Source: a virus
DNA: 64,000 nucleotides
Reading direction: 5' to 3' (one strand)
IMG/VR virus record: IMGVR_UViG_3300048850_000068
Coordinates: 1-64,000 of that record
Under the pieces are notes generated by a model. That model did not search any database. It had not been told where the DNA came from and was given only the letters and a program-made list of their open reading frames with translations. How positions within the stretch are numbered: the first letter of the stretch is position 1; the number at the start of each line of letters is the position of its first letter. A program made the translations under genes and the position numbers. Shown here piece by piece: positions 4,532 through 42,092 of this stretch.

Positions 4532-4556
4532 TATAGCTGTCAACGCGCGGATTGCA
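4532..4556 (-). promoter_or_regulatory. Phage promoter-like motif
   Basis: TGCAATCCG-N10-GCTATA. Confidence 0.6.
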
Positions 4557-4567
4557 CGAGAAAACTA

Positions 4568-4834
4568 TCAGGCTGCGAACACGTCCTCATCGAAGAAGAA
4601 CAGCGCCTCGAGGTCGGAATACCCGCCCACGAGCTTTTCCTCTCCATCTTCAAGGGCATAGACCCGCGGGAAGGTGCGGTTCGGCGCCTCGAAGCCGCGC
4701 TCGTCGAGGAACCGGGTGCGCTCGGTGCGCTCCGGGATCTCCACGAACTCGAATGGGATCGTCTTGTCGGCGAGGAGCCCCTTCGCCTTCAGGCAGAAGG
4801 GGCAGCCCTCGTATCCGTAGATGCGATACTGCAT
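4568..4834 (-). CDS. Glutaredoxin
   Basis: CPFC active site, TFPRV, VGGYSDL; start MQYRIYG; near RNR genes. Confidence 0.88.
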   Translation of the reverse strand: MQYRIYGYEGCPFCLKAKGLLADKTIPFEFVEIPERTERTRFLDERGFEAPNRTFPRVYALEDGEEKLVGGYSDLEALFFFDEDVFAA

Positions 4835-4835
4835 A

Positions 4836-5024
4836 TCAGGTCTCACGCTTCTGCCAGAACCAGCGCCGGCGAGCGAGCAAAAGAACAACCTCGTGACCCT
4901 GCGACCATGAAGTAGTCACTCGCCAGCCGTGGCTTAGATAGCCCGCAATCTGCTTGCGATAGTCGAAATTGCTTGAGACCGCCGTGGCCTTCAGAAACTC
5001 GACCTCATAGGTGTAAAGCTTCAT
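4836..5024 (-). CDS. Small hypothetical protein
   Basis: AAGGAG SD before MKLYTYEVE. Confidence 0.5.
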   Translation of the reverse strand: MKLYTYEVEFLKATAVSSNFDYRKQIAGYLSHGWRVTTSWSQGHEVVLLLARRRWFWQKRET

Positions 5025-5034
5025 TTCCAGCTCC

Positions 5035-6781: not shown

Positions 6782-7087
6782 CTATCCTTCAGTTTGCATG
6801 AACTTCGCGAGCTGACGGCGCTTGTTGGTGCGCCCCACCTCAATTGCTTCAGCAGGGATCAGACCCGCCTTAATGCAGCGGTCGACCATTTCGGTCACAT
6901 CCCCGACCTCGAGACCGAGACGCTCGCTGTTGTCGAGGAGCTGCCCGGGCTGAACCTCATTGACGCCAAAGCGCAGCATCTTGGTTGCGCGCTGCTGCAC
7001 CTCGGCGCACTCCTCGATCAGGATCTCGAGGAGCTCGCGCTGGTGCGGGGTCGGCTTAGGGCAGGGCGAGACGAACTTTTCCGTCAT
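6782..7087 (-). CDS. MazG-like nucleotide pyrophosphohydrolase
   Basis: LIEECAEVQQ...LEVGDV (EExxE...ExxD) pattern. Confidence 0.65.
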   Translation of the reverse strand: MTEKFVSPCPKPTPHQRELLEILIEECAEVQQRATKMLRFGVNEVQPGQLLDNSERLGLEVGDVTEMVDRCIKAGLIPAEAIEVGRTNKRRQLAKFMQTEG

Positions 7088-8079
7088 CCGAAAATATCCT
7101 CTTCGCTGTAGGCGACGTCGTGAGCGGTGTATTCGGTCGGATCCTTGTGGAAGAAGTCCGTCTTGGTGCCGCCGATGGTCTCCTCGACCATCCAGTAGAA
7201 ATCGTCCTCATGGGCCGGATTGACCGGCAGCGCGGGGTTGTAGCCGATGGCGCGCAGGCTCTCGTTGAGGCGATAGGCGACGAACGACTTGAGGATGCCG
7301 GCCGACAGCTTCGGGCCGGTGTAGTCACCCACCATCCAGTCGATCACATCGCATTCAGCCTCGAACGCAACCTTGGTCTCTTCCACGATGCGCGCGGCGA
7401 GATCGGCGTCGAACAGCTCCGGATATTCCTTCCGCAGCGTGTTGATGATCTTGATGCCGATCTGAGCGTGGAGAGATTCCTCGTTGCGGGTGTATTGCAC
7501 CTGCTGAGCGCATTCCTTGAGCAGCGTGCCCTCTTCCGAATGCCGGAAGCGGTTGAACCACATGATGACGTAGAACTGCGAGAACAGGCTCACGTTCTCC
7601 ACGAACAGCGTGAAGAGGATCAGGGCGTAAATGTATTGCTTACGGTGATCGTCGCCGTAGACCTTCTTGAGATACTTGCGCAGATACTTCACGCGGCCGG
7701 CGATTACCGGCAGCTTCAGGTTCTCCTCGAACACATGGTTCATGCCGAGCCGGTCGAGCAGCTTCTCATAGGCGTCGTTGTGGATAACCTCGTTCTGCGC
7801 CAGCACCAGGCCGAGATCCTGCAGCGAGGGATGCGGAAGGTTGTCGCCGAGCTTGGCCCAGAACGTCTTGACCGCAACCTCGATCTGCCCGATGGCCGAG
7901 AGGGTGTTCGTGACGACCTGGCGCTCCTGGTCGGTGAGCTCCGTCTTGAACTGATGGTAGTCGGACGCGAAGGTGAACTTCTCTGCGGTCCAGAAGCCGG
8001 CCCAGATATCCTTCTTGAAATCTTCGGTCCAGGGGTAGTGATTGGGCTTGCGCGCAATCTGTTCGTCGAAAAGTGGCAT
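7084..8079 (-). CDS. nrdB: Ribonucleotide reductase beta subunit
   Basis: EVIHNDAY, ENVSLFSQF, NEESLH, DFF..PTEY. Confidence 0.93.
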   Translation of the reverse strand: MPLFDEQIARKPNHYPWTEDFKKDIWAGFWTAEKFTFASDYHQFKTELTDQERQVVTNTLSAIGQIEVAVKTFWAKLGDNLPHPSLQDLGLVLAQNEVIHNDAYEKLLDRLGMNHVFEENLKLPVIAGRVKYLRKYLKKVYGDDHRKQYIYALILFTLFVENVSLFSQFYVIMWFNRFRHSEEGTLLKECAQQVQYTRNEESLHAQIGIKIINTLRKEYPELFDADLAARIVEETKVAFEAECDVIDWMVGDYTGPKLSAGILKSFVAYRLNESLRAIGYNPALPVNPAHEDDFYWMVEETIGGTKTDFFHKDPTEYTAHDVAYSEEDIFG

Positions 8080-8115: not shown

Positions 8116-8133
8116 TAAGTCAGTAATGACTTA
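8116..8133. promoter_or_regulatory. 18-bp palindromic operator-like site
   Basis: TAAGTCAGTAATGACTTA. Confidence 0.7.
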
Positions 8134-8134
8134 C

Positions 8135-8159
8135 TATAGCGAAATTGATACGGAGTTCA
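8135..8159 (-). promoter_or_regulatory. Phage promoter-like motif
   Basis: TGAACTCCG-N10-GCTATA. Confidence 0.5.
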
Positions 8160-9088: not shown

Positions 9089-9831
9089 CAGAACATTCCC
9101 CATGCGGGGTTGTTCGCCACGATCACGTCCTGCTCAAGCGCGGCGAGCTGCTCCGCGGCGTCCTGCTCCTCACGGGCAATCCGGGCGTCCTCCTCGGCCT
9201 TGATCTTCATGCGCGCCTCTTCCTCGCGCTGCCGGCGATCTTCTGCGGCCCGCTTGGCTTCACGCTCCTCCTGGGCCTTCCTCTGACGTGCCCACTTGTC
9301 CTCGCGCTCCTTGCGGGCAGCTTCAGCCTTGGCCTTCTTCGTCAGGCTCGGGTCGATCTCCTCAAAGGCCCATTCGTATTCGGTCTCCGAGAACGTATCG
9401 CCGTTGTCGCGTCGCTCCCATGGCTGATCGGCACGAAGCGCGGTCGAGTGCGAGACCACATCAGTCACATCGGACTTCCAGCGCTTGCCGTGCCCGAATG
9501 CCGCCCAGGTGTGCCTAACCAGAGCATCCTCGATCCGGTAGCCCTCGAAGGTGTCGCCGCCGAAGTTTGCCGTGATAAAGACAATGCCAACCGGGAAATC
9601 TGGAAAGCCGACAATGGTCTCGGCGTCTTGATCGACGAGCTCGATGGCATGAAGCTGCGTTGAGGGAACGGAATTGCCGTTGTGATCAAAGCCCTGCGTC
9701 GAGGCGTATTGCGCCTCGAACACATGCTCGCCGATCCTGAAGCGTTTGCCGATCGTTCCGTAATAGAGGTGACGACCTTCCGCGCCGAGCAGATCGAAGA
9801 ACTCGCGGCAGACGGCTGGGGCGTAGCTCAT
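9088..9831 (-). CDS. Hypothetical protein with charged coiled coil, C-terminal NNPAWGMF
   Basis: ORF coupled by ATGA overlap. Confidence 0.6.
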   Translation of the reverse strand: MSYAPAVCREFFDLLGAEGRHLYYGTIGKRFRIGEHVFEAQYASTQGFDHNGNSVPSTQLHAIELVDQDAETIVGFPDFPVGIVFITANFGGDTFEGYRIEDALVRHTWAAFGHGKRWKSDVTDVVSHSTALRADQPWERRDNGDTFSETEYEWAFEEIDPSLTKKAKAEAARKEREDKWARQRKAQEEREAKRAAEDRRQREEEARMKIKAEEDARIAREEQDAAEQLAALEQDVIVANNPAWGMF

Positions 9832-10262
9832 CCGAACATACCCCACATCGGGTTGTCCTGGTTCGCCTCGACGCTCTCCTTGCGAGTGCTCTCCTCGAAA
9901 TCAGCCATAAAGATCTTCACCGCCTCGTTCCAGTCCGGAACGCTGTCACCGTCCTCAAAACCGAGCGCCGTGACCAGGAAGTATTCCAGGCCGGTGAATT
10001 GCTCGAACTGCGACGGCTTCGACAGCTCCATCTGCGTGTAGGGCTTGTCGTCGAACGGCACGAATTCCAGGATGAAGTTACCGCGCGCACCCGTGCGCAC
10101 GCCCTTTAGGATAAATTCATCCCCGCCGGTGAGCGGCCTGGTCTTGTAGGTGCCGTTTTCCAACACCGACGTCTTGAGCGCGCCTTCGAGGGCGAAGGCC
10201 GGCTCCTCACGCCTGATCGCAGCGAGAAGCTTGTCGATCACTGCCTGGGTTGCTGGGTTCAT
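9828..10262 (-). CDS. Hypothetical protein, C-terminal DNPMWGMFG
   Basis: ORF downstream of a palindrome + promoter-motif pair. Confidence 0.6.
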   Translation of the reverse strand: MNPATQAVIDKLLAAIRREEPAFALEGALKTSVLENGTYKTRPLTGGDEFILKGVRTGARGNFILEFVPFDDKPYTQMELSKPSQFEQFTGLEYFLVTALGFEDGDSVPDWNEAVKIFMADFEESTRKESVEANQDNPMWGMFG

Positions 10263-10273: not shown

Positions 10274-10291
10274 TCAGTCAGTTCTGACTTA
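10274..10291. promoter_or_regulatory. 18-bp palindromic operator-like site
   Basis: TCAGTCAGTTCTGACTTA. Confidence 0.7.
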
Positions 10292-10296: not shown

Positions 10297-10515
10297 CTAG
10301 CTATAGCTTGGAACGAACGGATTGTTCAATGCTCGTTTCAACTGGGCAATCGTATTTTTGATCGAGCGGGCGTCTCCGGGCGTGGAAGCGGAATACACCG
10401 CCTGCCCGCCGCCCGGAGGGGTCCACTTCAGGTGACGCCCGCCGGTCTCCTCGACCGTCCAGCCGTCAGCCTTGTAGCGCTTAATGAGCTTCTTCAAATC
10501 GCCTTTGAGAGACAT
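10297..10515 (-). CDS. HicA-like (dsRBD-fold) small protein
   Basis: GWTVEETGGRHLKW...STPGD.R...N...LKR pattern. Confidence 0.55.
   Translation of the reverse strand: MSLKGDLKKLIKRYKADGWTVEETGGRHLKWTPPGGGQAVYSASTPGDARSIKNTIAQLKRALNNPFVPSYS
10302..10326 (-). promoter_or_regulatory. Phage promoter-like motif
   Basis: AACAATCCG-N10-GCTATA. Confidence 0.55.
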
Positions 10516-11284: not shown

Positions 11285-13221
11285 GCTGAAGCTTCCTCCA
11301 GAGTGCTCTCCCACTTCGCCTTCTTGACGACAGTGATCGTGTTGGAAATCCAATCCTTGAGATTGTTGTGGCTGATGACGAAGACCGAGCCGCGCTCGCG
11401 CGCCTTCTCCTCGAGGATCTGCATCAGGCGCTCGAGGCCTGCCGGGTCGAGGGCGTCGTCGATCTCGTCGCCGATGAAGAGCTCAATGGGCTTGGTCGCC
11501 CGGCGCGCGACGAGGTCCTGCAGGGCCAGGGCCGCAGCGATCCGGACCTTGCGCTTCTCGCCGCCCGAGACGCTCTTGAAGGTGTCGCCGCCCTCGGCGT
11601 GAACAACCTCGATGGAGAACTTCTCCTTGAGATTGCCCTTCGAATCCGGAACCAGAGTTGACCAGGTCGCCGTGATGTTGCCGTCGGACAGGGTGCCTAG
11701 ATACTTGGCGGTCTGATCGTTAAGGAAGGGTGTCACCTCGTCGAGCATGAAAGCCCGCACGCCGGCCGGTGAGAACACCCTTGCGACCGTCTCGCTCGCC
11801 TTGACCAGCGCAACCGCCCCGTCGACCTCCTCAGACAGCTCCTTGAGCCGTGTTTCGATGTCCTCAATCTCGCCGTCCATGCGCTCGATCTGGGCCGCGA
11901 AGGGGTTTTCCGCCTTCTTAACCTCGTTGAGCCGCTCGACATAACCCTTCGCCTTCTGGACGTGGGTCTCCTTCGCCTGCTCCAGGCCGGTGATCGTATT
12001 CAGATCGTTGCGCATCTCGCGCAGGGACGCATTTGTTGCGCTCAAGTCAGTCATACTAGCGCGATGCTTGGAAAGCTCGTCAGTGACGCTCTGAAGCGAT
12101 TTCTGAGCGTCTTCCAGTTCTGTCTTTGCTGCGTTGAAGCTCGCGACAGTCGCACGATAGCGCGCAGCGATGGCATCTTGCACCGGCTTGACGTCCTGAG
12201 CCGTGATCGGCTTAGAGCAGGCGTTGCACGGGCAGCCGATCTGATGCTTGGCGTCGTCGTGCTCCTTCTTCTCGCGGTCGGCCTGGCTCTTGAGGGTCCG
12301 GAGCTGCACCTGGGCCGAAGTCACGGTCTGCGTTGCCGTCAGCACCCGCGCCTCGAGCTCCTTCTCCTTCTTGCGCTCGTCGGCCGAGCCGTCGATCATC
12401 GCCTCAAGGCGCTTGATGACGCTCAAGGTCGTGGGCTTGTCGAACTTGGACAGCCGGTCAGCCACACCGACGGCAAAATCCCTCTCGCTCTTGGCGAGCC
12501 GGGTCAGTTCGACTACCTGATCCGCACGTCTACTCTCATAGTCCTTGTAAGACGTCTTAAGAGTAGCGAAACGGTTCTGGGCATCGGTCAGCCGGGTCGA
12601 TTGCAGTTGCACCTGGCGCTGGAATCCGTCGAGAATGCCCTTTGCAGCCGTGACGCGGGTATTCGCCTCCTTGTAAGCCGCCTCGAGCAAGGTTGCGCCG
12701 GACGCCTCTTCGATCAGGAGCTTCAACTGCTTGTCGGTCATGCCCGGAAGGTCGGGCATCATCTCCTGGCCCGCATAGACCGCGCTCTTGAACACGTCGT
12801 AGGAGCAACCGATGACCTTGTCGATCTCGATCTGAGTGAGGGCATTCGTGCCCTTGGTCAGGTCGGTGATGGCGCCGGTCGTATCGAGGCGCAAGAGCTG
12901 GACGAGGTTCTTGTGCTGCTTGTGCTTGCGGTAGCGGTTGATCCGGTAGACGTCATCGCCATCCTCGATATCGACCGTGACCATGCAATCCTTCTTCGCC
13001 GACAGGTTCACGACCTTGTCGCCGTCTTCCCCGCGCGCCGTGACGCCATAGAGCGCCCAGCAGATGCCGTCGGGCAGCGAGGACTTGCCGGCGCCGTTGG
13101 AATCGGCCGAGGTGTCGCGGTTGTTCTCGCCCTGGATCAGCACCAGGCCGCGGTCCGCGAGCTTGACGTCGCCTTCCTTGATCGTGAGGAAGTTCTGGAA
13201 CTTTGCGCGCAGGATCTTCAC
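11281..13221 (-). CDS. SbcC/Rad50 (gp46-like) ABC ATPase
   Basis: NGAGKSS Walker A, coiled coil, CNAC hook, SGGEK signature, IGDEIDDALD, ISH. Confidence 0.9.
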   Translation of the reverse strand: MKILRAKFQNFLTIKEGDVKLADRGLVLIQGENNRDTSADSNGAGKSSLPDGICWALYGVTARGEDGDKVVNLSAKKDCMVTVDIEDGDDVYRINRYRKHKQHKNLVQLLRLDTTGAITDLTKGTNALTQIEIDKVIGCSYDVFKSAVYAGQEMMPDLPGMTDKQLKLLIEEASGATLLEAAYKEANTRVTAAKGILDGFQRQVQLQSTRLTDAQNRFATLKTSYKDYESRRADQVVELTRLAKSERDFAVGVADRLSKFDKPTTLSVIKRLEAMIDGSADERKKEKELEARVLTATQTVTSAQVQLRTLKSQADREKKEHDDAKHQIGCPCNACSKPITAQDVKPVQDAIAARYRATVASFNAAKTELEDAQKSLQSVTDELSKHRASMTDLSATNASLREMRNDLNTITGLEQAKETHVQKAKGYVERLNEVKKAENPFAAQIERMDGEIEDIETRLKELSEEVDGAVALVKASETVARVFSPAGVRAFMLDEVTPFLNDQTAKYLGTLSDGNITATWSTLVPDSKGNLKEKFSIEVVHAEGGDTFKSVSGGEKRKVRIAAALALQDLVARRATKPIELFIGDEIDDALDPAGLERLMQILEEKARERGSVFVISHNNLKDWISNTITVVKKAKWESTLEEASA

Positions 13222-13538
13222 AGGCTCTCTTCCCTGACAGTGATGTTTTCGGACATTTCGGTTTCGACGATCATGGGCCTCTCGTCGTTGAAGGGCAGCA
13301 CCACGCGCACGGACGGGCTATCCATGCCGTCGCGGTGCGCCAGGAGGATCACACCTTCCTCGGCGTGCTCGACCCAGATTCGCGGGCCCTTGTCGTAGCC
13401 CGGGACCGTGTCGTGCTTCTCGGCTACATCGATGACGATCGCCGTCTCGCCGAGATTGGCACGGAACGCCACCTTGTCGCGGGCGTCCCGGCTGCCTCTC
13501 ATGCGTGAGAGAAGACCGCTAATCGGCCAGACCATCAC
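13218..13538 (-). CDS. Hypothetical protein
   Basis: Overlap-coupled ORF. Confidence 0.5.
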   Translation of the reverse strand: MMVWPISGLLSRMRGSRDARDKVAFRANLGETAIVIDVAEKHDTVPGYDKGPRIWVEHAEEGVILLAHRDGMDSPSVRVVLPFNDERPMIVETEMSENITVREESL

Positions 13539-13891
13539 TCCCCTCCGATCGTGTTGACGAGAGCGCCATAGGTGCCCGTGTGGATATTGCTGGCGGGCGC
13601 TGGCTTTGATCCCATGTCCGCGAAGTCGTTCCGGTCGGCCTTACGGAAGCTCTTTCCTGAGCCCTTGCCCGAATGCTTGAAGCTGGTTTTCCCGCCGCGC
13701 TGCGGCTGCTCGTATTGTCGCGTGATGACGGCATTCGGATCTTTGCCCTTGTATGCTTCGGCGGTGGTGTAAGGCAGGTCGTGGAGCGTGACCGAAATCC
13801 GCTCCTCGCGATCATCGATCTTCTTGCCTTTCTCGTCGAAAACCGAGATCAACTGCCTGCGTGTGAAAGTGACCGAATAAAGCTGAGACAT
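13535..13891 (-). CDS. Hypothetical protein
   Basis: ORF directly downstream of the promoter motif at 13923-13947. Confidence 0.55.
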   Translation of the reverse strand: MSQLYSVTFTRRQLISVFDEKGKKIDDREERISVTLHDLPYTTAEAYKGKDPNAVITRQYEQPQRGGKTSFKHSGKGSGKSFRKADRNDFADMGSKPAPASNIHTGTYGALVNTIGGE

Positions 13892-13922
13892 TACGCCCTC
13901 GTCTGTGTTGCTATTCTTATAA

Positions 13923-13947
13923 TCTAGCAGAAACTACGCGGATTGCG
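13923..13947 (-). promoter_or_regulatory. Phage promoter-like motif
   Basis: CGCAATCCG-N10-GCTAGA. Confidence 0.55.
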
Positions 13948-13953
13948 GTCGGC

Positions 13954-32855: not shown

Positions 32856-32941
32856 TTACATACCCTCCTAACCTCTTATGTGCTTTTCAGTTTAGATCAT
32901 TTGCTCTGCGTCTTTTACTCAAACGCTCGTTGTATCTTAGC

Positions 32942-32966
32942 TATAGCGTAATCGTTGCGGATCACA
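32942..32966 (-). promoter_or_regulatory. Phage promoter-like motif upstream of the repressor
   Basis: TGTGATCCG-N10-GCTATA. Confidence 0.5.
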
Positions 32967-33028
32967 TGCGTATAATCTTGGGAAGAACATGAGGTTACGT
33001 GTTTCCGTTGTGCTGGAGACTGACCGAT

Positions 33029-33046
33029 TAAGTCAGTTCTGAGTGA
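33029..33046. promoter_or_regulatory. 18-bp palindromic operator-like site upstream of the repressor
   Basis: TAAGTCAGTTCTGAGTGA. Confidence 0.6.
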
Positions 33047-33135
33047 ACAGTCACCAAGATAAGTCTGAGGTGTCAAGTTGGTTTCAAGTCAAAAACCCTT
33101 TTTACCGTGAACAGATGGAGAACAAAGTGCCACAC

Positions 33136-33144
33136 TTATCCACA
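33136..33144 (+). promoter_or_regulatory. DnaA box
   Basis: Perfect TTATCCACA in the long AT-richer intergenic region upstream of the rep candidate. Confidence 0.6.
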
Positions 33145-33151
33145 AGGGGTA

Positions 33152-33169
33152 TCGGTCAGGACTGACTGA
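33152..33169. promoter_or_regulatory. Degenerate 18-bp palindromic site next to the DnaA box
   Basis: TCGGTCAGGACTGACTGA. Confidence 0.5.
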
Positions 33170-33516
33170 GCACTCGCGGCAACGGACAAAAGGCAATTTA
33201 GATGGGTGAATGATTCGAATCACGCGGGAAGATTGTCGCAGCAAGGATTCGCACGGCCCAGGTTCCATAAGGTTTCTTATGCGAATCCTACCTGAATGCG
33301 CGAAAGCCCGGGAGCGACCCGGGCCATCGACAAATGGGCATCCCTGCCCTCTCCGTGTGCGCGGAGTGATTTGCTTAAACTGTCGCAGGCTGGGTCGTTC
33401 GTCAAGAGCCCACAGGTTTTGCCCGGTTCAGTCTTGGCTTAACCGTGGAATCGGAGCAGGCTTCGCGGTTAACGGGCGATTCCGCCTGTTTGGAGCAACG
33501 ATGACGTAGGAATGGA

Positions 33517-33591
33517 CAAAGCAAAGGCCCCGAAGTTGGAAGCTTCGAGGCCTTTAGGAGCCTGGTGAGGGCCCAATCGGTAACTGTTGCA
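33517..33591 (-). ncRNA. Predicted ~75-nt antisense copy-control RNA (ctRNA)
   Basis: Minus-strand promoter TTGACT-N17-TCTAAT (33626-33598) followed by hairpin AAAGGCCTCGAAG-CTTCCAA-CTTCGGGGCCTTT and GCTTT; antisense to the leader of the plus-strand rep candidate. Confidence 0.55.
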
Positions 33592-33597
33592 AGTCCG

Positions 33598-33626
33598 ATT
33601 AGACCCTCTCCGACAATCGAAGTCAA
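33598..33626 (-). promoter_or_regulatory. Sigma70-type promoter for the antisense RNA
   Basis: -35 TTGACT, exact 17-nt spacer, -10 TCTAAT. Confidence 0.6.
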
Positions 33627-33680
33627 GAGAACACCGCTTCGGTGAACGCTCCCGCTTTGCCTTCTTCACAGGAGGTTTAG

Positions 33681-34214
33681 GTGAGACAGAAATATCTTTC
33701 GCGCTGGTCGGGCAATTTCAAAGCACCCAAGCGCATGATGAGGTGGCTCGAGGAGCGCCTGGCCGGCGAGACTTACGCGGTCCAGGCCGCAACGGTCGCC
33801 GTGATGTGCATGCGGGTCTGGTGCTCGCCGGGCCGCATCGGTGAAGAATTCGCCCTTTCGCGAACGGACGTGGCCCGGAAGCTGGGTCTCAGGGAGTGGG
33901 AGACCCGCAAGGGGATCGAGCTCCTGGTCGCCGTCGGCTTCCTGTCCGCCAAAGCCCCTGAATCCTTGCAAGCCCGTCGCACAGCCAAAGGGATTCGACG
34001 CCCGCCGATCCTCTATCGCGTCTGCCTGACGATCGTCTCCTACTTCCGCAGATTGCTCGAAAAGCGTTCCGCACCAGTATTTAATCTTTCAGAAGGGAAT
34101 CTACCAAAGACCGAAGGTCTATATTCTGGTGTGGGACCCGCCGACATAAAAAAGGGCGATCCCGAAGGACCGCCCGCGCACACAAAGAGGAAACACGACT
34201 TTAGCCGGGAATGA
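33681..34214 (+). CDS. Winged-helix protein, candidate plasmid replication initiator
   Basis: Only credible plus-strand gene; AGGAGG SD; LSRTDVARKLGL...IELLVAVGFL wHTH; DnaA box and ctRNA-like element upstream. Confidence 0.55.
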   Translation: MRQKYLSRWSGNFKAPKRMMRWLEERLAGETYAVQAATVAVMCMRVWCSPGRIGEEFALSRTDVARKLGLREWETRKGIELLVAVGFLSAKAPESLQARRTAKGIRRPPILYRVCLTIVSYFRRLLEKRSAPVFNLSEGNLPKTEGLYSGVGPADIKKGDPEGPPAHTKRKHDFSRE

Positions 34215-34260
34215 ACCCTTGGCACCCAAGTCGTCAGGGATTCTGAGGTATCGACTATGG

Positions 34261-34278
34261 TAAGTCAATACTTACTTT
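34261..34278. promoter_or_regulatory. Degenerate 18-bp palindromic site between convergent genes
   Basis: TAAGTCAATACTTACTTT. Confidence 0.5.
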
Positions 34279-34548
34279 TTAGGTGGCATCGATTCCGGAG
34301 GGCCGGTGAGCGAATTCCTCAAGATGCTTTCCAATAACGTCGTGGATCTTCTCCTCGGCGATGGCCGCGGCGAGCTCCTCGATCTTGGTGATCAGGTGCT
34401 CCCGCCAGTCCCGGCGCCCGTAGGTGCCGGGCTTGGAGCCCTCGTAAAGCTCCATCGCCTTGCGCAGGTGGTCGCGCTGACGCTGAACGGGCGTTCGCGT
34501 GCCATGCTTGGCGAGGGTCTCGATGTCCTTTTGGAGCTTGTCACTCAT
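34279..34548 (-). CDS. Hypothetical protein
   Basis: Coupled to the ligase gene. Confidence 0.5.
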   Translation of the reverse strand: MSDKLQKDIETLAKHGTRTPVQRQRDHLRKAMELYEGSKPGTYGRRDWREHLITKIEELAAAIAEEKIHDVIGKHLEEFAHRPSGIDAT

Positions 34549-35972
34549 GCTGCATCCTTCAGGTTTTCGTCCTTGTCGTCGCGGAAGCGCACAAAGCGCG
34601 GGTGGCGCAATGAGCCGTCCGGAGTGATCTCGTGAAACTCGATCTCAGCGAGACGCCCGAGCACCTGGCGCCCTGCCCCGCCGCGGTATAGAACCTTGTT
34701 CTTCTCAGTGACGGGTGTCACGCCGGCGCTGTCGGCGCGCAGCAGCGGCTCGAGCTCCTCGCGCTCATGCTCCTTGAACCCGCCGCCGATCTTGACCTCG
34801 ACCATCTTGCCTTCGTGCTCGCGCTCGACCAGCAATCCGCCGAACTTGCCTTCCAGCTTCGTTCCAGCCTCGCCCTCGAACCAGCCGGTGATGCGCAGAT
34901 CCTCGGTCTCCTCGGCCTTCATCTTCATCCAGAGGAAGCCCTTCGACTTGACGTAGTGCGCATCGAGTGGCTTCACCATCGCGCCCTCGAGGCCGTTGGC
35001 GCGGTGCTCCTCGTAGATCGCCTGAATCTCCTCGTGGCTGTTCGCCAGGCGCAGGTCCGTCATCTTGACGATGAGGCCTTCCGGAGCGAAGCCCGCAATG
35101 AACTCGGCGAACTTGCGCCGCGCCTTGAACGGAATCTTGATCTCGTTCTCGGACGAGGTTGCGAGATTGTAGGGCAGCGCGTCGAACAGGTTGATAATGG
35201 CGTTCTCGGCGTCGGCGCTCTTGCGGCGCACCTCTCCGGACGCCTCGTTGAAATGCCCGCCGGTAGTGATCTCAGCGTCGAGGGCAGCCGTTGCGCCCCG
35301 AGCTCCGAGCATCTTAGCGTAGAGCTCCATCAGCTTGTCGCCCGGAGCCTTCTCGACCGCAGTCTTAGCCGCAGCGCGCACCATCTCTGCGATCAGATCC
35401 GACAGATAGTCGAGCGAGGGAATGTGATTGCCGACGCGCGTGAATCCCTTTGCCGCGCCGTCCTTGACCAGGAACATCGCCCGCATGCCATCGAGCTTGG
35501 GCTCGACCGCGACCGGGAACACCTTCACGCGCTTCTCCTCGTAGGGCTTGGAGAGCATGACGTCGAAGGTCGGGATCGTGCCAGGCATGACCCGGTTGAC
35601 CGTGTTCTTCGAGAAGCCGGCGCGCAGGTCCTTCTTGAGGATGCGCCACAGGAGCTCGCTCGACTTAGGCTCGAGGTCCTCGAGGATGTTCTTGACCGCA
35701 GTCTTCGCGGCCGCGCCGGTGAGCTCGCGCTTGGAGAGCTGGTGCAGCATCACCCACGGCTGCGGGGAAATCTCGTCGAAGCTCCGGGAGCCGAACGTCT
35801 TCGACTTCGTGGGCGTCAGCCCGAAGGTGATGAAGGGGTCGAGAGCTGCCTTCACAACCTGGCGCGCGAGCTCGGATTCGCCGAGAAGCGCCTCGACGAG
35901 TTCCGCCTTGGCGGATGTTGAGGACGTGGCCGCGATCTGGTCGATGCGGTCTAAAAGATCGGTCGAGTTCAT
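34545..35972 (-). CDS. ATP-dependent DNA ligase
   Basis: EPKLDGMR, LDAEI, EGAMVK, WMKMK, GSLRHPRF. Confidence 0.92.
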   Translation of the reverse strand: MNSTDLLDRIDQIAATSSTSAKAELVEALLGESELARQVVKAALDPFITFGLTPTKSKTFGSRSFDEISPQPWVMLHQLSKRELTGAAAKTAVKNILEDLEPKSSELLWRILKKDLRAGFSKNTVNRVMPGTIPTFDVMLSKPYEEKRVKVFPVAVEPKLDGMRAMFLVKDGAAKGFTRVGNHIPSLDYLSDLIAEMVRAAAKTAVEKAPGDKLMELYAKMLGARGATAALDAEITTGGHFNEASGEVRRKSADAENAIINLFDALPYNLATSSENEIKIPFKARRKFAEFIAGFAPEGLIVKMTDLRLANSHEEIQAIYEEHRANGLEGAMVKPLDAHYVKSKGFLWMKMKAEETEDLRITGWFEGEAGTKLEGKFGGLLVEREHEGKMVEVKIGGGFKEHEREELEPLLRADSAGVTPVTEKNKVLYRGGAGRQVLGRLAEIEFHEITPDGSLRHPRFVRFRDDKDENLKDAA

Positions 35973-37415: not shown

Positions 37416-37440
37416 TATAGCGATTTCTAAGCGGATATTA
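37416..37440 (-). promoter_or_regulatory. Phage promoter-like motif
   Basis: TAATATCCG-N10-GCTATA. Confidence 0.5.
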
Positions 37441-38599
37441 AGTCAGTTCTGACTGGATTATTCAGGCGACGCTCAGCCGCTTCAGCGTCGGCATAGGGGT
37501 TCTTGAGCATCCACTTCATCGCCAGGGCCGGCGTGTAGGTGTGTGCCTTCCAGAACGCCTCGCAAACCACCTCGGGCAGCACCTCGTTCGGGTCCTTCTT
37601 GTAAGGAAGTAACGCGATCTTTGACCGCACCCCGATCTTGCGCACCTTGTCGGCCGCTTCCAGGACAGCGCTGATCACCTTGGGCTCGCCGTCCCACATG
37701 AAGGTGAGCTCCTCGAGGCCGTGCGCCTTGAGCTGCAGGATGCGGCCGAGCTGGTCGTCGCCGTCGAGCGAGCCGTAGCTCAGGTGCTTGCCGAAGGTGC
37801 CGACGGCTGCCACGTCGCGCAGGTCAACCTGGGTATCCAGCGCCTTCTTGATGGAGAACACGTCGAAGGCACCCTCCCCGGCACAGGCACGCTTGGCCCG
37901 GAGTGCGTTTTGCCCGTTATACAAATACTTGCCCGTTCCAGGCAGGCCCTTGGGGAACCGGTATTTCTCATCCGACGTGCCGGTGATGTCGCGGCCCTGG
38001 AAGGTCTTGAGCTCGCCGTCGAGATCGAAGACCGGGATGATCACGCGGTTGTCGAACTTCTGCCCGCCCTGAGAGCCGTCGTCCTTCTGGTAGTTCCACC
38101 AGCCCTCGATGCAGAAGCGCAGATGGAAGTATTTCGCCAGGTCGGCGTCAATGCCGCGGGTCTCGAGGTATTGCAGATTGCGCCCGTCGGCCGTCGGCAG
38201 CGGGAAAGACAGCGGCAGCTTGACCTCGCCCACCTCGACGGCAGCCGTGGTCAGACGCTTCGGGCGCCAGCCCTGATCTTTCAGCGCCTCGACCACATGC
38301 TCGCGGGTCTGACGCCAGCCGTCCTTTTCATCCGGATCACCGTGGAGATAGGTGTGAATGAACGACAGCTTGCCCCGGAAGCGGGTGTTGCAGACGAAGC
38401 AGTTGCCGACGCCCGATTCCGCGTTGAGATAGACCCTGGAGCGCTTGTCGCCGCACGATTGCACCGGACAGGCCTCGGCATTGATCTGCATGCCAGAGGA
38501 GCCCCGCGAGAGCTTGTAGGACAGGCTCTCGCGGTCGAACCAGGATTCCAGGTCGAGCTCTTCCTCGAGCTCCTTCCAGGTCGGCCCGTTGTTGCTCAT
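37427..38599 (-). CDS. DNA primase (Zn finger + TOPRIM)
   Basis: CPVQSC...CFVC, RVIIPV, FQGR, KY, GEGAFD, MWDGE, KDPNE. Confidence 0.85.
   Translation of the reverse strand: MSNNGPTWKELEEELDLESWFDRESLSYKLSRGSSGMQINAEACPVQSCGDKRSRVYLNAESGVGNCFVCNTRFRGKLSFIHTYLHGDPDEKDGWRQTREHVVEALKDQGWRPKRLTTAAVEVGEVKLPLSFPLPTADGRNLQYLETRGIDADLAKYFHLRFCIEGWWNYQKDDGSQGGQKFDNRVIIPVFDLDGELKTFQGRDITGTSDEKYRFPKGLPGTGKYLYNGQNALRAKRACAGEGAFDVFSIKKALDTQVDLRDVAAVGTFGKHLSYGSLDGDDQLGRILQLKAHGLEELTFMWDGEPKVISAVLEAADKVRKIGVRSKIALLPYKKDPNEVLPEVVCEAFWKAHTYTPALAMKWMLKNPYADAEAAERRLNNPVRTDLISA
37439..37456. promoter_or_regulatory. 18-bp palindromic site inside the primase 3' end
   Basis: TAAGTCAGTTCTGACTGG. Confidence 0.65.
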
Positions 38600-38817: not shown

Positions 38818-40187
38818 GCGCTTTCCTTCCCGAGGAACTTGGTGAGGAACTGCATCTTGGCGCGGTCCTGCTGGATGCGCAGCACGAACTCGCCCTCGGT
38901 GTTACGGGACGCGGCGAAGAACAGCCGCGCCTCGCCGATCTGCTTCTCGGCCGAGGTGGCGTTGATCGTGATGACGATATCGGCCGTGCGGATACGGTTG
39001 TAGTCTTCGGCCACGTCCGTTGCCTTGGCGATCGAGGCCTTGGCGCCGTCACGGTTGGTCTGCGTCGCAGTGAGCACGGCGGCGTTGTTCTCGAAGGCCA
39101 CGGCGCGCAGATCCACATAGATCTGGCGTGAGGCTTCGCGCAGCTCGTCCTGCACCCGCTCCGGCATCATCAGGTCGGCGTAATCGACGATGATGAGGTC
39201 GAAGATGATGCCCTTGGTCCGGTAGCGCTCGATCAGGCGACGGAGCTGCGACACCTTGAAGGTGCCGGACGCGAACTCGTGGATCTTGAGCAGGCCGGAC
39301 TTTGCCTTGATCTTACGGATCTCGTCACGGACCGCATTCGGCTTGTCCTTGAGCACCTTCATCATGGTGTTGGACAGCTTCGCGTCGAGACGATCGCCGA
39401 TGATGCGCTTGCCCACTTCGAGCGTGATGCCGAGCACGTTGTAGCCGGCCATCGACGCCATCGCGCCGTGATCCCACAGCGCAATCGACTTGCCCGACTT
39501 GGCCGGGCCCATGTAGAGCGAAAGCTCTTTACGGCCCCATCCGCCGTGAATGAGCTCCTTGTCGAGATCCGGATAGCCGGTAGTGATGCCGTCGGGCTTG
39601 ATCGTGCCGCAAGCGACCGCGATGCGGTGCTCGGTGCGGGCCTCGACCTCCTCGAAGTAATCGTATTCGCCGATATCCTCGGCCGTGCCCACCAGGCCCG
39701 CCTTCTGGACGTCTCTGATCACGTCCTCGAAGCGCCCGCGTTGCCAGTTTGCCACGCCGTCGGTGAGTGCCTTCTCGAAGGCCCGATACCGGGCGAACTT
39801 GCCAACCTCGTCGATCACGAAGTCGCGGTCCGAGATATCCTGCTGAAGCGCCAGCTTGACCCGGTCCTTGACCTCGGCGACGAGATCCGAGCGGATCTTC
39901 TTCGACTGGATCGCGTCCTTCAGGATGACGCCGATCGAACCCCGGTCCGGCGCCTTCTTGTAGGTCTTAAAGTGATCGAGCGCCACCTTGACGATCGCGC
40001 CGTCGGCGTCGTTCTCGAGGAAGCTCGGGTCGATCAGGCCGTCGGTGCGGTTGACGAACACCGTGTCGCGCAGGGTGAGCGCCACGATCTTCGATTGGAA
40101 CTCGTCGTCGAACTCATAGGTCGAGGTTGCGAGACCCTGATCCTCGTCCTCGTCGTCATTGGCTGCAACTGCGGCGGAAGCGGCCAT
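38814..40187 (-). CDS. DnaB-like replicative helicase
   Basis: TTGYPDLD, GPAKSGKS, TLE, IIVDYADL, TATQTNR. Confidence 0.9.
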   Translation of the reverse strand: MAASAAVAANDDEDEDQGLATSTYEFDDEFQSKIVALTLRDTVFVNRTDGLIDPSFLENDADGAIVKVALDHFKTYKKAPDRGSIGVILKDAIQSKKIRSDLVAEVKDRVKLALQQDISDRDFVIDEVGKFARYRAFEKALTDGVANWQRGRFEDVIRDVQKAGLVGTAEDIGEYDYFEEVEARTEHRIAVACGTIKPDGITTGYPDLDKELIHGGWGRKELSLYMGPAKSGKSIALWDHGAMASMAGYNVLGITLEVGKRIIGDRLDAKLSNTMMKVLKDKPNAVRDEIRKIKAKSGLLKIHEFASGTFKVSQLRRLIERYRTKGIIFDLIIVDYADLMMPERVQDELREASRQIYVDLRAVAFENNAAVLTATQTNRDGAKASIAKATDVAEDYNRIRTADIVITINATSAEKQIGEARLFFAASRNTEGEFVLRIQQDRAKMQFLTKFLGKESA

Positions 40188-40474
40188 TACACGATCTCCT
40201 CGTAGCCGGCCAATCCTGACTTAAAGTAAGTCACTACTGACTTACGACCCTCAACAAGCCTTTCGAGCTTCAGGGTGTAGGCGTCCGTCTGCACGAGAAC
40301 GCCCTCATGGACCGGGCGATTGAAGTCAGGCACGGCGCTGTAGAGACGCACGGGCCGGCCGACCAGGCTCTTAAGCTCGTCCTGGTGCGACCAGGGCTTT
40401 ACCTTGTAGGGCTTGCGCTCGTTCTTCTTCTCGACGATCAAATTGCGCCGTCCGTAATTATCACCAAATGCCAT
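40187..40474 (-). CDS. Hfq/LSm-like small protein
   Basis: QDEL...PVRLY...EGVLVQTDAYTLKL...TYFKSGL aligns by eye with the Hfq Sm1/Sm2 motifs. Confidence 0.55.
   Translation of the reverse strand: MAFGDNYGRRNLIVEKKNERKPYKVKPWSHQDELKSLVGRPVRLYSAVPDFNRPVHEGVLVQTDAYTLKLERLVEGRKSVVTYFKSGLAGYEEIV
40227..40244. promoter_or_regulatory. 18-bp palindromic site inside the Hfq-like CDS, upstream of the helicase
   Basis: TAAGTCACTACTGACTTA. Confidence 0.65.
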
Positions 40475-40506
40475 TGTTGTTCTCTTATGTTGCGCGTTGA
40501 TTTGAA

Positions 40507-40531
40507 TATAGCGAAGTAGAAGCGGATTAGA
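40507..40531 (-). promoter_or_regulatory. Phage promoter-like motif
   Basis: TCTAATCCG-N10-GCTATA. Confidence 0.55.
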
Positions 40532-40542
40532 ACAAGTATCTA

Positions 40543-41244
40543 TCAGGCTGCTTCAAGGACACGATTGAGATAATCTTGTCCGAAACGGGCCTTCACCTTG
40601 TCTTCCGGAAGCACCTGCTTGTCGTAGACCAACTGGTTGAGCAGATGGGTGGCGTTCCCGCGCTTCATCACCTGGGCCAGGATCCACTCGTGGTGATCGT
40701 CCTGAGCCTTGAGCCCCTGATAGAAGCTGTTGTGATAGTTCGGGTGGCGCGAGTAGAACAGAAACCCCTCCTGCCGGTCCTCCCACAGCGGCCCGATCTT
40801 GTCGGTGATCAGGTCCGAATACATGTGCGAGGGCTGCGGCAGACGATCCTGATTCCAGTAGCGGAGCTGAATGTCGAACGCGAGGTCGAGGAAGACGTCG
40901 TAGGGCATGCCGGCCGCGTCTGCGATCTGCCGGCCACGCCATACGGCGCTCATCTTCGGGCTCTTGTCGCCCGTGAACATTTCCTTGATCTTGATCGGCT
41001 GCACATACTCGGCCCGGGTGCGGTCGATCTCGCGACGATAATAGCGCCGATACGCCTTGGTGAACTCGTGGGCGTAGACATAGGTCGCCTGGACCGGATG
41101 CAGGAAGCGATAAGCGAACCACTTGCCGGTGAACAGGGCGGTCTCGACCGCGACCCAGTCCTTGCGCACATACTTCTGCATGTGTTCGTCGCAGGTGTCC
41201 GGATCGAGGTCGATGCCGTAGATAATGTCGTCGCCGAAGTCCAT
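40543..41244 (-). CDS. Hypothetical protein (aromatic-rich)
   Basis: 233-aa ORF, TAATG-coupled to phoH. Confidence 0.6.
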   Translation of the reverse strand: MDFGDDIIYGIDLDPDTCDEHMQKYVRKDWVAVETALFTGKWFAYRFLHPVQATYVYAHEFTKAYRRYYRREIDRTRAEYVQPIKIKEMFTGDKSPKMSAVWRGRQIADAAGMPYDVFLDLAFDIQLRYWNQDRLPQPSHMYSDLITDKIGPLWEDRQEGFLFYSRHPNYHNSFYQGLKAQDDHHEWILAQVMKRGNATHLLNQLVYDKQVLPEDKVKARFGQDYLNRVLEAA

Positions 41245-42092
41245 TATGATCCCAAAAAGCGCTGTAGGCCTGACTGAGCATCTTCGCTCTCAGTCGTGCT
41301 ATAGCGCTTTTCGGGCGGGCTGCATGAAGTCAATTCTGGCTCCTCGTAGGCTTCCACGATCGCCTGGCACATGCCGGAGCGCACGATATCCTCGCGGGAG
41401 AACTCGACCGCACCGATGCCCTTGATCCGGGCGAGACGCTTGACCGCATCGGCCAGGCCCGACTTCGAGGCGTCCGGCAGGTCGCACTGACGCACGTCGC
41501 CATTGATCAGGAACTTGGCGTTCTCACCGATACGCGACAGGAGCAGCTTGAACTGGCCCTTGGTGGCATTCTGCATCTCGTCCGCGATCACCCAGGCGTT
41601 CTTAAGCGTCGAGCCGCGCAGCAGCGCCATTGGGCGCCCTTCGATGACCTTGTTCTTGATCAGATACTCCAACTGACCGGCGCCGAAGAACTCCTCGAGG
41701 GCGTCGAGCACAGGACGGAAATAGGGATCAGTCTTTTCGGTCTCGTCGCCCGGCAGGAACCCGAGATCCTCTTCCTCGGCCGCGACGATCGGGCGAGTGA
41801 AGATGATCTTCTCGGTCTCGCCCTTCTGCAGAGCCTCGCAGGCGCGCATCACCTCGAGCCAGGTCTTGCCGGTGCCGGCCGGACCCGTGGCGAAGACGAT
41901 GGTGTTGACGGCAATGGCGGTGTCGAGCTGGCGCTGGGTTTCGTTCAGAGGTTCGATAGCACGCTTGTTCGGCTTGCGCGGCCGGCGCGTGATCTCCTCG
42001 TGCTGAGCAATCTGAATGAGAGGGTCGTGGTTCTTCTTACGGCCGTCGCGGCGCTTCATACGATTTGCGGCGCGATCCTTCGGGTTGCCCAT
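41244..42092 (-). CDS. phoH: PhoH-family ATPase
   Basis: GPAGTGKT, LGFLPGD, RGST, DEMQN, SRIGE, GD..QCD, DIVRS. Confidence 0.92.
   Translation of the reverse strand: MGNPKDRAANRMKRRDGRKKNHDPLIQIAQHEEITRRPRKPNKRAIEPLNETQRQLDTAIAVNTIVFATGPAGTGKTWLEVMRACEALQKGETEKIIFTRPIVAAEEEDLGFLPGDETEKTDPYFRPVLDALEEFFGAGQLEYLIKNKVIEGRPMALLRGSTLKNAWVIADEMQNATKGQFKLLLSRIGENAKFLINGDVRQCDLPDASKSGLADAVKRLARIKGIGAVEFSREDIVRSGMCQAIVEAYEEPELTSCSPPEKRYSTTESEDAQSGLQRFLGS
41300..41324 (-). promoter_or_regulatory. Phage promoter-like motif inside the phoH 3' end
   Basis: TGCAGCCCG-N10-GCTATA. Confidence 0.45.

Follow-up and report, generated by a model that had tools for sequence, protein, structure and literature searches.

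A fixed-spacing promoter class and its candidate sigma factor in a relative of Rhizobium phage-plasmids

Elements of the form TGCAATCCG-N10-GCTATA are, judged from sequence, a genuine and distinct class of phage promoter, here called class I, that is kept in related phages, departs from the canonical host type, and is predicted to drive operons for replication, recombination and nucleotide metabolism. They may be read by the host core polymerase together with a sigma factor encoded by the phage itself (26564-27178), an assignment that we consider plausible and put forward tentatively.

The window, meaning the whole 64,000-nt stretch that was analysed, is half of the complete genome (117.6 kb; 117,557 bp) of a rhizobial phage-plasmid whose kin are the Rhizobium phage-plasmids RHEph10 and V1VFA-S. 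Phage-plasmid relatives encode parA, parB and repC (PMC12509600), and a tblastn search did not find a RepC homologue in the present genome. rIIA/rIIB, gp32-like and RecA/UvsX-like genes are also present in the phage. The literature that we found on large Rhizobiales phage-plasmids consists of genome announcements and surveys, without promoter analysis.

A two-part motif with fixed spacing

Exact matches to TGCAATCCG-N10-GCTATA number four, against 0.00 expected from 100 shuffles. When up to three mismatches are allowed the number rises to 11, compared with a mean of 0.89 and a maximum of 5 in shuffled sequence; every match is on the minus strand, and they fall exactly at the coordinates of the 11 copies listed in the original prediction. 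The invariant 10-nt gap that had been claimed for these copies is likewise borne out, in that exactly 10 nt separate TGCAATCCG from GCTATA at every one of them, and other gaps are rare genome-wide: TCCG-Nx-GCTATA has 11 occurrences in the 117,557-bp genome with x=10, and 0-2 with any other x between 7 and 14. When dyads in upstream regions were counted de novo, TCCG-N10-GCTA, found in 10 regions, came out at the top of the non-palindrome dyads. A weight matrix made with 14 sites matched the same 14 genome-wide and none in 10 simulated genomes, although it is overfitted to its own sites.

All class I promoters in the window lie on the minus strand. The exact copies are found at 4532-4556, upstream of a Thy1-like gene (3522-4466); at 15075-15099, upstream of a metallophosphoesterase gene (13954-15033); at 20522-20546, upstream of the gp32-like ssb gene; and at 21625-21649, downstream of the pol III alpha gene. 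The remaining sites are 8135-8159, upstream of the ribonucleotide reductase (RNR) small-subunit gene (7084-8079); 10302-10326, upstream of 9828-10262; 13923-13947, a GCTAGA variant upstream of 13535-13891 and an SbcC-like gene; 32942-32966, which precedes an XRE-type HTH gene and has no palindrome; 37416-37440, at the 3' end of the primase gene; 40507-40531, upstream of 40187-40474 and a DnaB-like helicase gene; and the weakest, 41300-41324, within the 3' end of a PhoH-like gene and upstream of 40543-41244. With start codons taken from the gene calls made in this analysis, all 11 sites have the end of GCTATA 31-100 nt upstream of the next start codon on the minus strand. Relatives have sites in the same positions, following pol III, preceding ssb and at the end of primase.

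A twelfth site in the window, also on the minus strand, is the variant CCGACCGCAATCC-N12-GAGATA (1301-1331), which precedes rIIA and whose -10-like hexamer is flanked by a 9-bp inverted repeat. Beyond the window, class I sites occur at 82866 (+), 109968 (-) and 114574 (-). The tail module is free of sites, as had been noted, with none in 43.4-64 kb of the window, and the sole motif match in 43.4-81.2 kb of the genome is intragenic and has three mismatches (79773). The earlier description of these elements as a middle-gene class is too narrow, because variants also serve rIIA and a small-gene region at 92-115 kb. In one soil metatranscriptome, contigs identical to the phage match only the ssb gene (19597-20448), downstream of the 20522 site; they might reflect DNA carry-over, and starts are not resolvable from contigs.

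If TATAnn is numbered -12 to -7, GCTATA occupies -14 to -9 and TGCAATCCG occupies -33 to -25. The -10-like part has A at -11 in 14 of 14 sites and T at -7 in 4 of 14; T at -7 is found in 1 of 18 sites in V1VFA-S and 3 of 18 in G001, another relative. The best-kept upstream bases, ATCCG (-29 to -25), are just downstream of the usual position of a -35 hexamer. A host primary-sigma promoter would have TTGACA or CTTGAC 16-18 nt upstream of the -10; a sigma-70 consensus scan calls none of the 11 class I sites, and in positions 1-43,399 it gives 3 hits against about 8 expected from shuffles. With a matrix of our own, however, site 8135 scores as host-type (CATGAA-N17-TATAGT).

A genome-wide palindrome and host-type promoters

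The palindrome TAAGTCA-N4-TGACTTA, a symmetric 7-4-7 arrangement, has 46 copies in the genome. Its arms have 36 deviating positions, of which 34 are one-sided, and 31 of these break pairing; the 4-nt centre varies freely. Because the arm deviations are uncompensated, the palindrome appears to be an operator type bound by protein rather than an RNA hairpin.

At about half of class I sites the palindrome covers the expected start site. Its 16-nt core lies downstream of the promoters at 4532 (core 4509-4524), 8135 (8117-8132), 10302 (10275-10290), 15075 (15048-15063) and 21625 (21599-21614), and starts +7, +2, +11, +11 and +10 nt after GCTATA, respectively. The 18-mer thus starts 1-10 nt downstream of GCTATA, in agreement with what had been reported for five cases. 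The further palindrome that was said to overlap an upstream element has its core at 37440-37455, and abuts or overlaps the upstream edge of promoter 37416; V1VFA-S has the same arrangement. Downstream of the ssb promoter is a second operator type, TAGCGAAATCGCTAATTAGCGAA, at 20493-20515.

The idea that the palindrome goes with class I alone did not hold up. Many copies lie in the tail and head modules, where the palindrome is also found within sigma-70-type promoters; its presence inside the spacers of structural-half promoters argues for a genome-wide operator, not one that accompanies class I alone. These host-type promoters, which we call class II, have the form CTTGAA/TTGACT-N17-19-TAnnAT, with 8 hits in 64-84 kb compared with 3.2 +/- 1.7 in shuffles, and the canonical CTTGAA-N18-TATNNT promoters of the structural half carry the palindrome within the spacer. 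Examples in the tail module, both on the minus strand and both with a palindrome in the spacer, are ATTGAA-N18-TATTAT at 49623-49652 and GTTGCA-N19-TATCAT at 57714-57744. A tentative host-type promoter, CTTGCA-N17-TAGATT (28443-28471, minus strand), is upstream of the operon with the cobS-like and sigma genes; a stricter E. coli-style scan does not call it. The -35 element of this tentative promoter overlaps a palindrome at 28469-28484.

The palindrome might be bound by the XRE-type HTH protein (32412-32855, minus strand). The putative recognition helix of this protein varies among three phages with differing half-sites, and the operator half-sites are AAGTCA, AAGTAA or AATCAA according to lineage. 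The region 31900-34600 has no Rfam matches. A terminator-like hairpin is present at 32348-32332, and matches in its region (5) are not above those in shuffles (6.9).

The phage sigma factor and its neighbour

The protein of 204 amino acids encoded at 26564-27178 (minus strand), previously described as sigma-like, is predicted to be a genuine sigma factor with sigma-2 and sigma-4 domains, and is the only one encoded; Pfam, a family profile and structure alignment all point this way. Its score with Pfam Sigma70_r2 is 24.5 bits against a cut-off of 24 (26.3 bits in a six-frame search), it is the sole match to this model in the genome, and 78 of 79 members of its family also match. The family profile aligns with SigA region 2 at 1.9e-12. 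In a Foldseek search the top 50 rows are all sigma factors, with weak E-values of 0.01-0.06. Residues 1-80 of the model, whose mean pLDDT is 74, align with the N-terminal domain of SigE (VIA-align Z 10.4, rmsd 1.9, 73 residues aligned). Residues 109-204 align with sigma-4 structures 3mzy (Z 7.9), 2h27_D (7.1), 3vep_D (7.1), 3hug_A (6.9), 2o8x (6.6) and 8jzt (6.5); for a domain made of helices, such values are moderate. Pfam region 4 was undetected in the protein and in its family, and a search with the protein alone gave no sequence match among solved structures. It resembles ECF sigma factors in size and domain plan only, and scores 25.2 bits with the curated ECF model NCBIfam TIGR02937, below the cut-off of 42.9.

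A gene for a 179-amino-acid protein with a Cys-rich N-terminus (26028-26567, minus strand) overlaps the sigma stop codon. It is kept in sigma-bearing relatives and also in Pseudomonas phage nickie; in both lineages its place is between cobS and dnaE. Compared with solved structures, its family has no significant match, the only row being FlgM at E 0.34. Paralogy between this protein and the sigma C-terminal domain was considered and rejected, since the hhalign probability of 32% with single sequences fell to 0.4% with profile against profile. The block from cobT to pol III that contains the sigma gene is the longest class I-free stretch of the replication half (11.3 kb) and is flanked alike in V1VFA-S, RHEph10, G001 and G002.

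Conservation in related phages

We searched for related sigma loci with a 7-row sigma alignment, and found CC[GC]-N10-12-GCTATA in every sigma-bearing genome or locus examined (V1VFA-S, RHEph10 with CTATT, G001, G002, L007, L009, L010, L012, L016, L017 and L018). Sigma identity across lineages is 32-51% and the hosts range from 52 to 66% GC, yet CCG is invariant. The -10 flavours differ by lineage even within one host genus, with CTATTc in RHEph10 and GCTATAA in V1VFA-S.

Co-variation of motif and sigma across relatives, which the original prediction offered as a check on their pairing, was not observed. Among 14 sigma sequences, the residues of the recognition helix do not change in step with the upstream element: genomes that share GCAATCC have AERNQ in the C-terminal HTH recognition helix here but xEQTx in L009, L010 and L016, and there is therefore no helix-to-motif co-variation. 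RHEph10 combines a 3-residue insertion in sigma region 2 with its CTATT flavour, in this single lineage only.

Phage nickie has a syntenic replication module, and no sigma was detected in its one record (positive control, 4 of 4). Its -10 elements are of the host type yAnnAT, and 5 of 5 end in T. Upstream, it has CCCC-N13-hexamer, with 5 sites at N13 and 0-1 at other gaps, where the corresponding arrangement in the present phage is TCCG-N12-TATAnn. Since nickie has the C-rich element without the sigma, the sigma is not required for that element. That nickie retains the C-rich element while its -10 is of host type fits the idea that the sigma of the present phage reads GCTATA, and suggests that another factor is responsible for the upstream element. 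Nickie is the only sigma-less lineage found, and its host is different too.

Possible readers of class I promoters

We propose that host core RNA polymerase with the two-domain sigma of the phage recognises class I sites. GCTATA would be recognised by the sigma-2 domain, with no need for T at -7, and either the sigma-4 domain or another conserved phage factor would contact the upstream element. At roughly half of the sites, TAAGTCA-N4-TGACTTA covers the predicted start, at -1 to +11 after GCTATA, and a dimeric DNA-binding protein on it would block initiation. Several points speak against the sigma. GCTATA fits the alphaproteobacterial primary-sigma -10 consensus, the recognition helix does not co-vary with the motif, and nickie has the C-rich element without a sigma. 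Phage sigma factors more often serve late genes, and typical ECF promoters have a gap about 3 bp longer than that between the upstream element and GCTATA.

A possible but rather doubtful alternative is that the host primary-sigma holoenzyme reads GCTATA, while a phage accessory protein at TCCG/CCCC (about -26) replaces the -35 contact in the manner of T4 middle promoters, in which case the phage sigma would serve something else. The upstream box is centred at about -29 with no -35 hexamer, which is the geometry of T4 middle promoters; sigma-less nickie has CCCC-N13-yAnnAT at fixed spacing; and the conserved Cys-rich gene between cobS and dnaE is found in both lineages. GCTATA also suits the -10 consensuses that are given in Table 3 of PMC4943231, cTATat for S. 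meliloti and GCTANAWC for Caulobacter, neither of which specifies -7. However, -10 elements of primary sigmas characteristically have T at -7, and there is no enrichment of it here (4 of 14, and 1 of 18 in V1VFA-S); the putative activator would also require an independent promoter of its own. A six-frame search of the complete genome at E<=1 with PF09158 (MotCF) and PF09010 (AsiA) found no homologue of the MotA C-terminal domain or AsiA.

Host SigA by itself is an unlikely reader. It would have to accept cGCTATA as a good extended -10 with lax demands at -35, and the upstream bases would then represent common descent or a slight optimum for affinity. A specific contact is favoured instead by the fixed 10-nt gap and by the CCG that is invariant across divergent sigmas and host GC, clear CTTGAA-N18-TATNNT promoters are used elsewhere in the same genome, none of the 11 sites passes the consensus scan, and RHEph10 and V1VFA-S have lineage-specific -10 flavours within one host genus. 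To its credit are the host-type score of site 8135, the description of rhizobial SigA as lax in PMC4943231 along with the -10 consensuses tabulated there, and CTTGAC-N17-CTATAT, which appears as the S. meliloti sigma-70 motif in PMC2873474. Class I also serves genes that are possibly needed first after entry. In V1VFA-S, class I sites occur near the record start, a region that has been connected with terminal repeats (PMC12509600); should this end be the first to enter, reading class I would fall to host polymerase alone, which also counts against the phage sigma.

It is quite improbable, in our view, that reading is split, with the phage sigma contacting GCTATA only, without T at -7, and a separate conserved factor, common to sigma-less relatives such as nickie, contacting the C-rich element at about -26. 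The Cys-rich 179-amino-acid protein encoded beside the sigma would be one candidate for this factor. The rhizobial lineage would have added a sigma to an older system of host sigma and phage -35 substitute, and one operator protein would gate both class I, over the start, and the host-type structural promoters, in the spacer.

That the motif is a repeated intergenic signal other than a promoter, with a part in replication, packaging or recombination for example, is very hard to credit, for even though the only RNA evidence is the ssb contigs described above, all sites are on the coding strand shortly before start codons, have a two-part layout with a fixed gap and a -10-like downstream part, and maintain orthologous positions in relatives.

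Comparison with known regulatory systems

Large phage-plasmids of Rhizobiales (Rhizobium, Methylobacterium/Methylorubrum) are little characterised. The regulatory map offered here comprises two promoter classes divided by genome half, a putatively dedicated sigma and two lineage-variable operator types. If the phage sigma does read class I, such phages could supply natural, possibly orthogonal, pairs of sigma and promoter and of repressor and operator for alphaproteobacteria, and comparison with the sigma-less Pseudomonas relative could show by what stages a phage replaces part of host promoter recognition.

Phage sigma factors with their own promoter classes include gp28 of Bacillus phage SPO1, for middle promoters, and gp36 of coliphage phiEco32. 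These systems and the present one have in common a small protein of the sigma-70 family encoded among early or replication genes, and a two-element, non-host consensus that is repeated before non-structural operons. Unlike those cases, the motif here joins a C-rich element to GCTATA across a short gap, the sigma belongs to a family without a characterised member, and its assignment to the motif is putative. The usual late-sigma logic also appears reversed, as it is the structural genes that carry host-type promoters.

T4 middle promoters have a MotA box at -30 and a sigma-70 -10 element, and depend on sigma appropriation by MotA/AsiA. Class I promoters similarly consist of a -10 element and a conserved box near -30 that takes the place of the -35 element at fixed spacing, and they too precede genes for replication and nucleotide metabolism, but the sequence of the box differs and T at -7 is not conserved. 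The rIIA/rIIB, gp32-like and RecA/UvsX-like genes are a further likeness to T4.

The operators of the C1 repressor of phage-plasmid P1 are scattered through the genome, as are the "stoperators" of mycobacteriophage L5 gp71. The palindrome resembles them in that tens of copies of one operator are spread over a large temperate genome, both at promoters and in the short gaps between genes. It differs in being a symmetric 7-4-7 palindrome and in having a class-dependent position, within the spacer at host-type promoters but covering the predicted start at class I.

The rhizobial primary-sigma consensus CTTGAC-N16-23-TATNNT (PMC4943231, Table 3) is matched in full by the class II promoters of this phage. 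Class I has in common with rhizobial primary-sigma promoters (CTTGAC-N17-cTATat) the (c)TATa of the -10 element, but lacks the CTTGAC hexamer and T at -7, and has instead the conserved ATCCG.

Genome organization and relatives

The complete 117,557-bp record (61% G+C), of which the window is bases 1-64,000, is a single contig with an IMG/VR-style completeness of 100%, and nearly all of its genes lie on the minus strand. The stretch that was sampled, 13000-22000, is present in its entirety in a soil-metagenome run, from which the record may derive. An rIIA gene spans the record ends (window 3-1259 plus genome 116151-117557), so the record ends fall within a coding sequence; either the genome is circularly permuted or it was opened at an arbitrary point. 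Closest among named phages are RHEph10, RHph_X66, V1VFA-S and B1VFA, all of Rhizobium and 115-122 kb long; in DNA, their pol III alpha is ~72% identical. V1VFA-S and B1VFA are described as siphophages that carry parA, parB and repC, and are likely phage-plasmids (PMC12509600). The present genome still has a ParA-like gene (85.0 kb) and a ParB-N gene (80.5 kb), and tblastn detected no RepC homologue anywhere in it. At the place matching repC of RHEph10 and V1VFA-S, which is on the opposite strand, there is a 1.4-kb region of lower G+C (0.55) with no confident gene (window 32856-34278), and Rfam gave zero matches in 31900-34600.

A replication, recombination and nucleotide-metabolism module occupies 1.3-43.3 kb of the window and encodes RNR, Thy1-like, dUTPase, SbcCD-like, RecA-like, gp32-like, 5'-3' exonuclease, pol III alpha, CobT/CobS-like, ligase, primase, DnaB-like and PhoH-like proteins. 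The lysis and tail module follows at 43.4-64 kb.

A promoter class with fixed spacing

Class I sites consist of a C-rich element (TCCG) and the hexamer GCTATA, separated by 10 nt. The 11 copies originally predicted are borne out, all on the minus strand and exactly at 4532, 8135, 10302, 13923, 15075, 20522, 21625, 32942, 37416, 40507 and 41300; 4 are exact and 11 have at most three mismatches, compared with 0.89 expected. The gap is indeed invariant. Genome-wide, TCCG-Nx-GCTATA has 11 occurrences at x = 10, against 0-2 for each other x from 7 to 14. TCCG-N10-GCTA was also the top non-palindrome dyad in a count over predicted upstream regions that did not use the predicted motif. From the end of the site to the minus-strand start codon downstream the distance is 31-100 nt at every site, and the tail module is free of class I, as had been claimed. 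A palindrome, TAAGTCA-N4-TGACTTA, begins 1-10 nt downstream of GCTATA at the five sites where this was predicted, and at one further site it abuts the upstream element. Judged by sequence, class I is a genuine phage promoter class that relatives conserve, and about half of its copies have a putative operator at the predicted start.

Three sites lie beyond the window, at 82866-82890 (plus strand), 109968 and 114574 (both minus strand). The plus-strand site ends just 8 nt ahead of the ATG of a 63-aa ORF, and would produce a leaderless or near-leaderless transcript or serve a gene further along. A looser variant, CCGnCCGCAWTCC-N11/12-GCGACA/GAGATA/GATACA, is found upstream of rIIA (window 1301-1331) and at seven places in the 92-106 kb region of the genome (92631, 93079, 96204, 101007, 102213, 104394 and 106147). 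CCGnCCGCAWTCC is common to all, and GCGACA, GAGATA or GATACA stands where class I has GCTATA. The -10-like hexamers of these variants are flanked or followed by inverted repeats whose arms vary from site to site.

The class I architecture is common to relatives, with a sequence flavour particular to each. V1VFA-S has ~18 GCGnTCCC-N10/11-GCTATAA sites, ten of them with its own palindrome (TAAGTAA-N4-TTACTTA) no more than 15 nt downstream, and RHEph10 has nine GCAACCCG-N10/11-(G/T)CTATTc sites. Sites occupy orthologous positions following pol III alpha, ahead of ssb and at the primase gene's end; at the last of these the palindrome is upstream both here and in V1VFA-S. We also sampled 13 IMG/VR loci retrieved via the sigma-like protein described below, and the two whole records behind them. 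One record (G001; 117.5 kb, 66% G+C) carries AACCCGA-N9-GCTATA in 12 upstream regions and a palindrome identical to that of the present phage; in the other (G002; 112 kb, 52% G+C) the form is CCC(c/t)-N11/12-GCTATA and the palindrome differs. The motif is present at the expected orthologous places in loci L007, L009, L010, L012, L016, L017 and L018.

Literature searches on RHEph10, V1VFA-S/B1VFA/RHph, Nickievirus, and rhizobiophage sigma factors or promoters yielded genome announcements and surveys, and no description of class I. The motif is described in neither PMC12509600 nor PMC8537276, and the word "promoter" does not occur in the latter.

A soil metatranscriptome contains four low-depth contigs that match the gp32-like ssb gene with its leader (window 19597-20448) at every position, and nothing else in 13000-22000 is phage-identical; the only other contigs there correspond to ~45 nt of conserved recA sequence, from which they differ at 1-4 positions. 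The ssb-identical contigs may represent DNA carry-over.

Comparison with host-type promoters

Class I departs from the host-type (sigma-70-type) promoter pattern. A sigma-70 consensus scan called none of the 11 class I sites, and gave only 3 matches in 1-43,399 versus ~8 expected from shuffles. If TATAnn occupies -12 to -7, the conserved ATCCG is at -29 to -25, not -35 to -30, and T at -7 is found in 4 of 14 sites in the present genome, 1 of 18 in V1VFA-S and 3 of 18 in G001. The rhizobial primary-sigma consensus in Table 3 of PMC4943231 is CTTGAC-N16-23-TATNNT, to which the structural half, in contrast to class I, has good matches. The consensus scan found 8 matches in 64-84 kb, versus 3.2 +/- 1.7 in shuffles. 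Host-type promoters of the form CTTGAA/TTGACT-N17-19-TAnnAT precede tail, head and packaging genes (window 43400-64000; genome 64-87 kb), and our own matrix, whose matches have T at -7 by construction, places them at 73012, 70321, 67709, 64102, 57714, 49623, 81248 and 86766 (plus strand).

The sigma-like protein and recognition of class I

The 204-aa product of 26564-27178 (minus strand) just reaches the Pfam cut-off for Sigma70_r2 but not the NCBIfam one for ECF sigmas, and is encoded by the only Sigma70_r2-type gene in the genome. Its family comprises 822 cluster representatives of ~210 aa, with Sigma70_r2 in 78 of 79 sampled members and a profile match to SigA region 2 at 1.9e-12; orthologues in named relatives are just 31-33% identical. 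In the AlphaFold model (pLDDT 74), a disordered linker (81-110) connects two helical domains. The top 50 Foldseek matches are all sigma factors, with weak E-values, and VIA-align matched the model to a sigma-2 domain (Z 10.4) and to six sigma-4 domains (Z 6.5-7.9), one of them sigma-E region 4 on -35 DNA.

Overlapping the sigma stop codon is the gene for a 179-aa protein (26028-26567) with a conserved Cys-rich N-terminus (PGCFG...C..C...C). All relatives, the sigma-less Pseudomonas phage nickie among them, keep it between cobS and dnaE; its product belongs to no Pfam family, and no solved structure matches it significantly.

A link between this sigma factor and class I is plausible, and that the phage sigma reads class I is a tentative reading with a little under an even chance. 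Class I is non-canonical although the genome has canonical promoters elsewhere, and sigma and GCTATA occur together in every lineage examined, in a set of loci selected by way of sigma. Nowhere in the replication half is there a longer stretch free of class I than the cobT-cobS-sigma-pol III block, and the same is true of four other genomes. Nickie, which lacks sigma (the positive control was found in 4 of 4 cases), has a syntenic replication module but host-type -10s (CATAAT/TACAAT/TATCAT), a contrast limited by its being a single lineage with a different host; the search for relatives yielded no second sigma-less one. Each nickie -10 lies between inverted-repeat arms of promoter-specific sequence.

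On the other side, GCTATA is compatible with an alphaproteobacterial primary-sigma -10 too, PMC4943231 characterises rhizobial SigA as lax, and the sigma HTH helix and the upstream element do not co-vary. Nickie also has CCCC(A)-N13-yAnnAT, with CCCC 13 nt from the hexamer at 5 sites versus 0-1 at other gaps, and this fixed spacing without sigma implies that the C-rich element does not depend on sigma. It is rather unlikely that host sigma reads class I with a phage accessory factor, and a six-frame search of the genome at E<=1 gave no homologue of AsiA or of the MotA C-terminal domain. Recognition by host sigma alone is less likely again, class I being invisible to the sigma-70 scan. That class I, conserved ahead of genes across relatives, is not a promoter is very improbable.

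The palindrome network

The palindrome has 46 genome copies with at most two mismatches (25 in the window), of which 40 are outside predicted coding regions, and the dyad AAGT-N6-TGACT occurs 64 times versus 0.36 expected. Arm deviations are one-sided in 34 of 36 cases, 31 of these 34 break pairing, and the 4-nt centre varies freely, a pattern that marks it as an operator bound by protein and not as an RNA stem. Half-sites differ by lineage (AAGTCA here and in G001, AAGTAA in V1VFA-S, A(A/G)T(C/A)AA in RHEph10 and AACTA in G002). A candidate binder is the XRE-type HTH protein encoded at 32412-32855, whose gene has a class I promoter lacking the palindrome ahead of it and a weak terminator-like hairpin behind it, and whose putative recognition helix varies between phages.

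A second operator-like repeat, TAGCGAA/TTCGCTA, is present downstream of the ssb promoter (window 20493-20515) and upstream of several small-gene promoters at genome 104-110 kb. The ssb promoters of relatives have the same kind of second element in lineage-specific sequence (TAGCTA in V1VFA-S).

The predicted pairing of palindromes with class I holds at part of the class I sites but is not exclusive, and the network is wider than claimed: ~7 copies accompany class I and ~11 accompany host-type promoters. In five of the latter (49623, 57714, 67709, 73012 and 86766, plus strand) the palindrome fills the 18-19-nt spacer, its last TA being the start of the -10; at 64102, 70321 and 81248 it flanks the promoter, over the -35 or just downstream. 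The other copies are orphans in short gaps between genes, with about 21 orphans in gaps that are very short. Some, such as those at 44638 and 45036 in the window and at 74951 and 79422 beyond it, carry a Shine-Dalgarno-like AAGGA/CAGGA in the 4-nt centre region, a few nucleotides ahead of a start codon. The layout of the orphan palindromes resembles that of dispersed repressor sites, or "stoperators".
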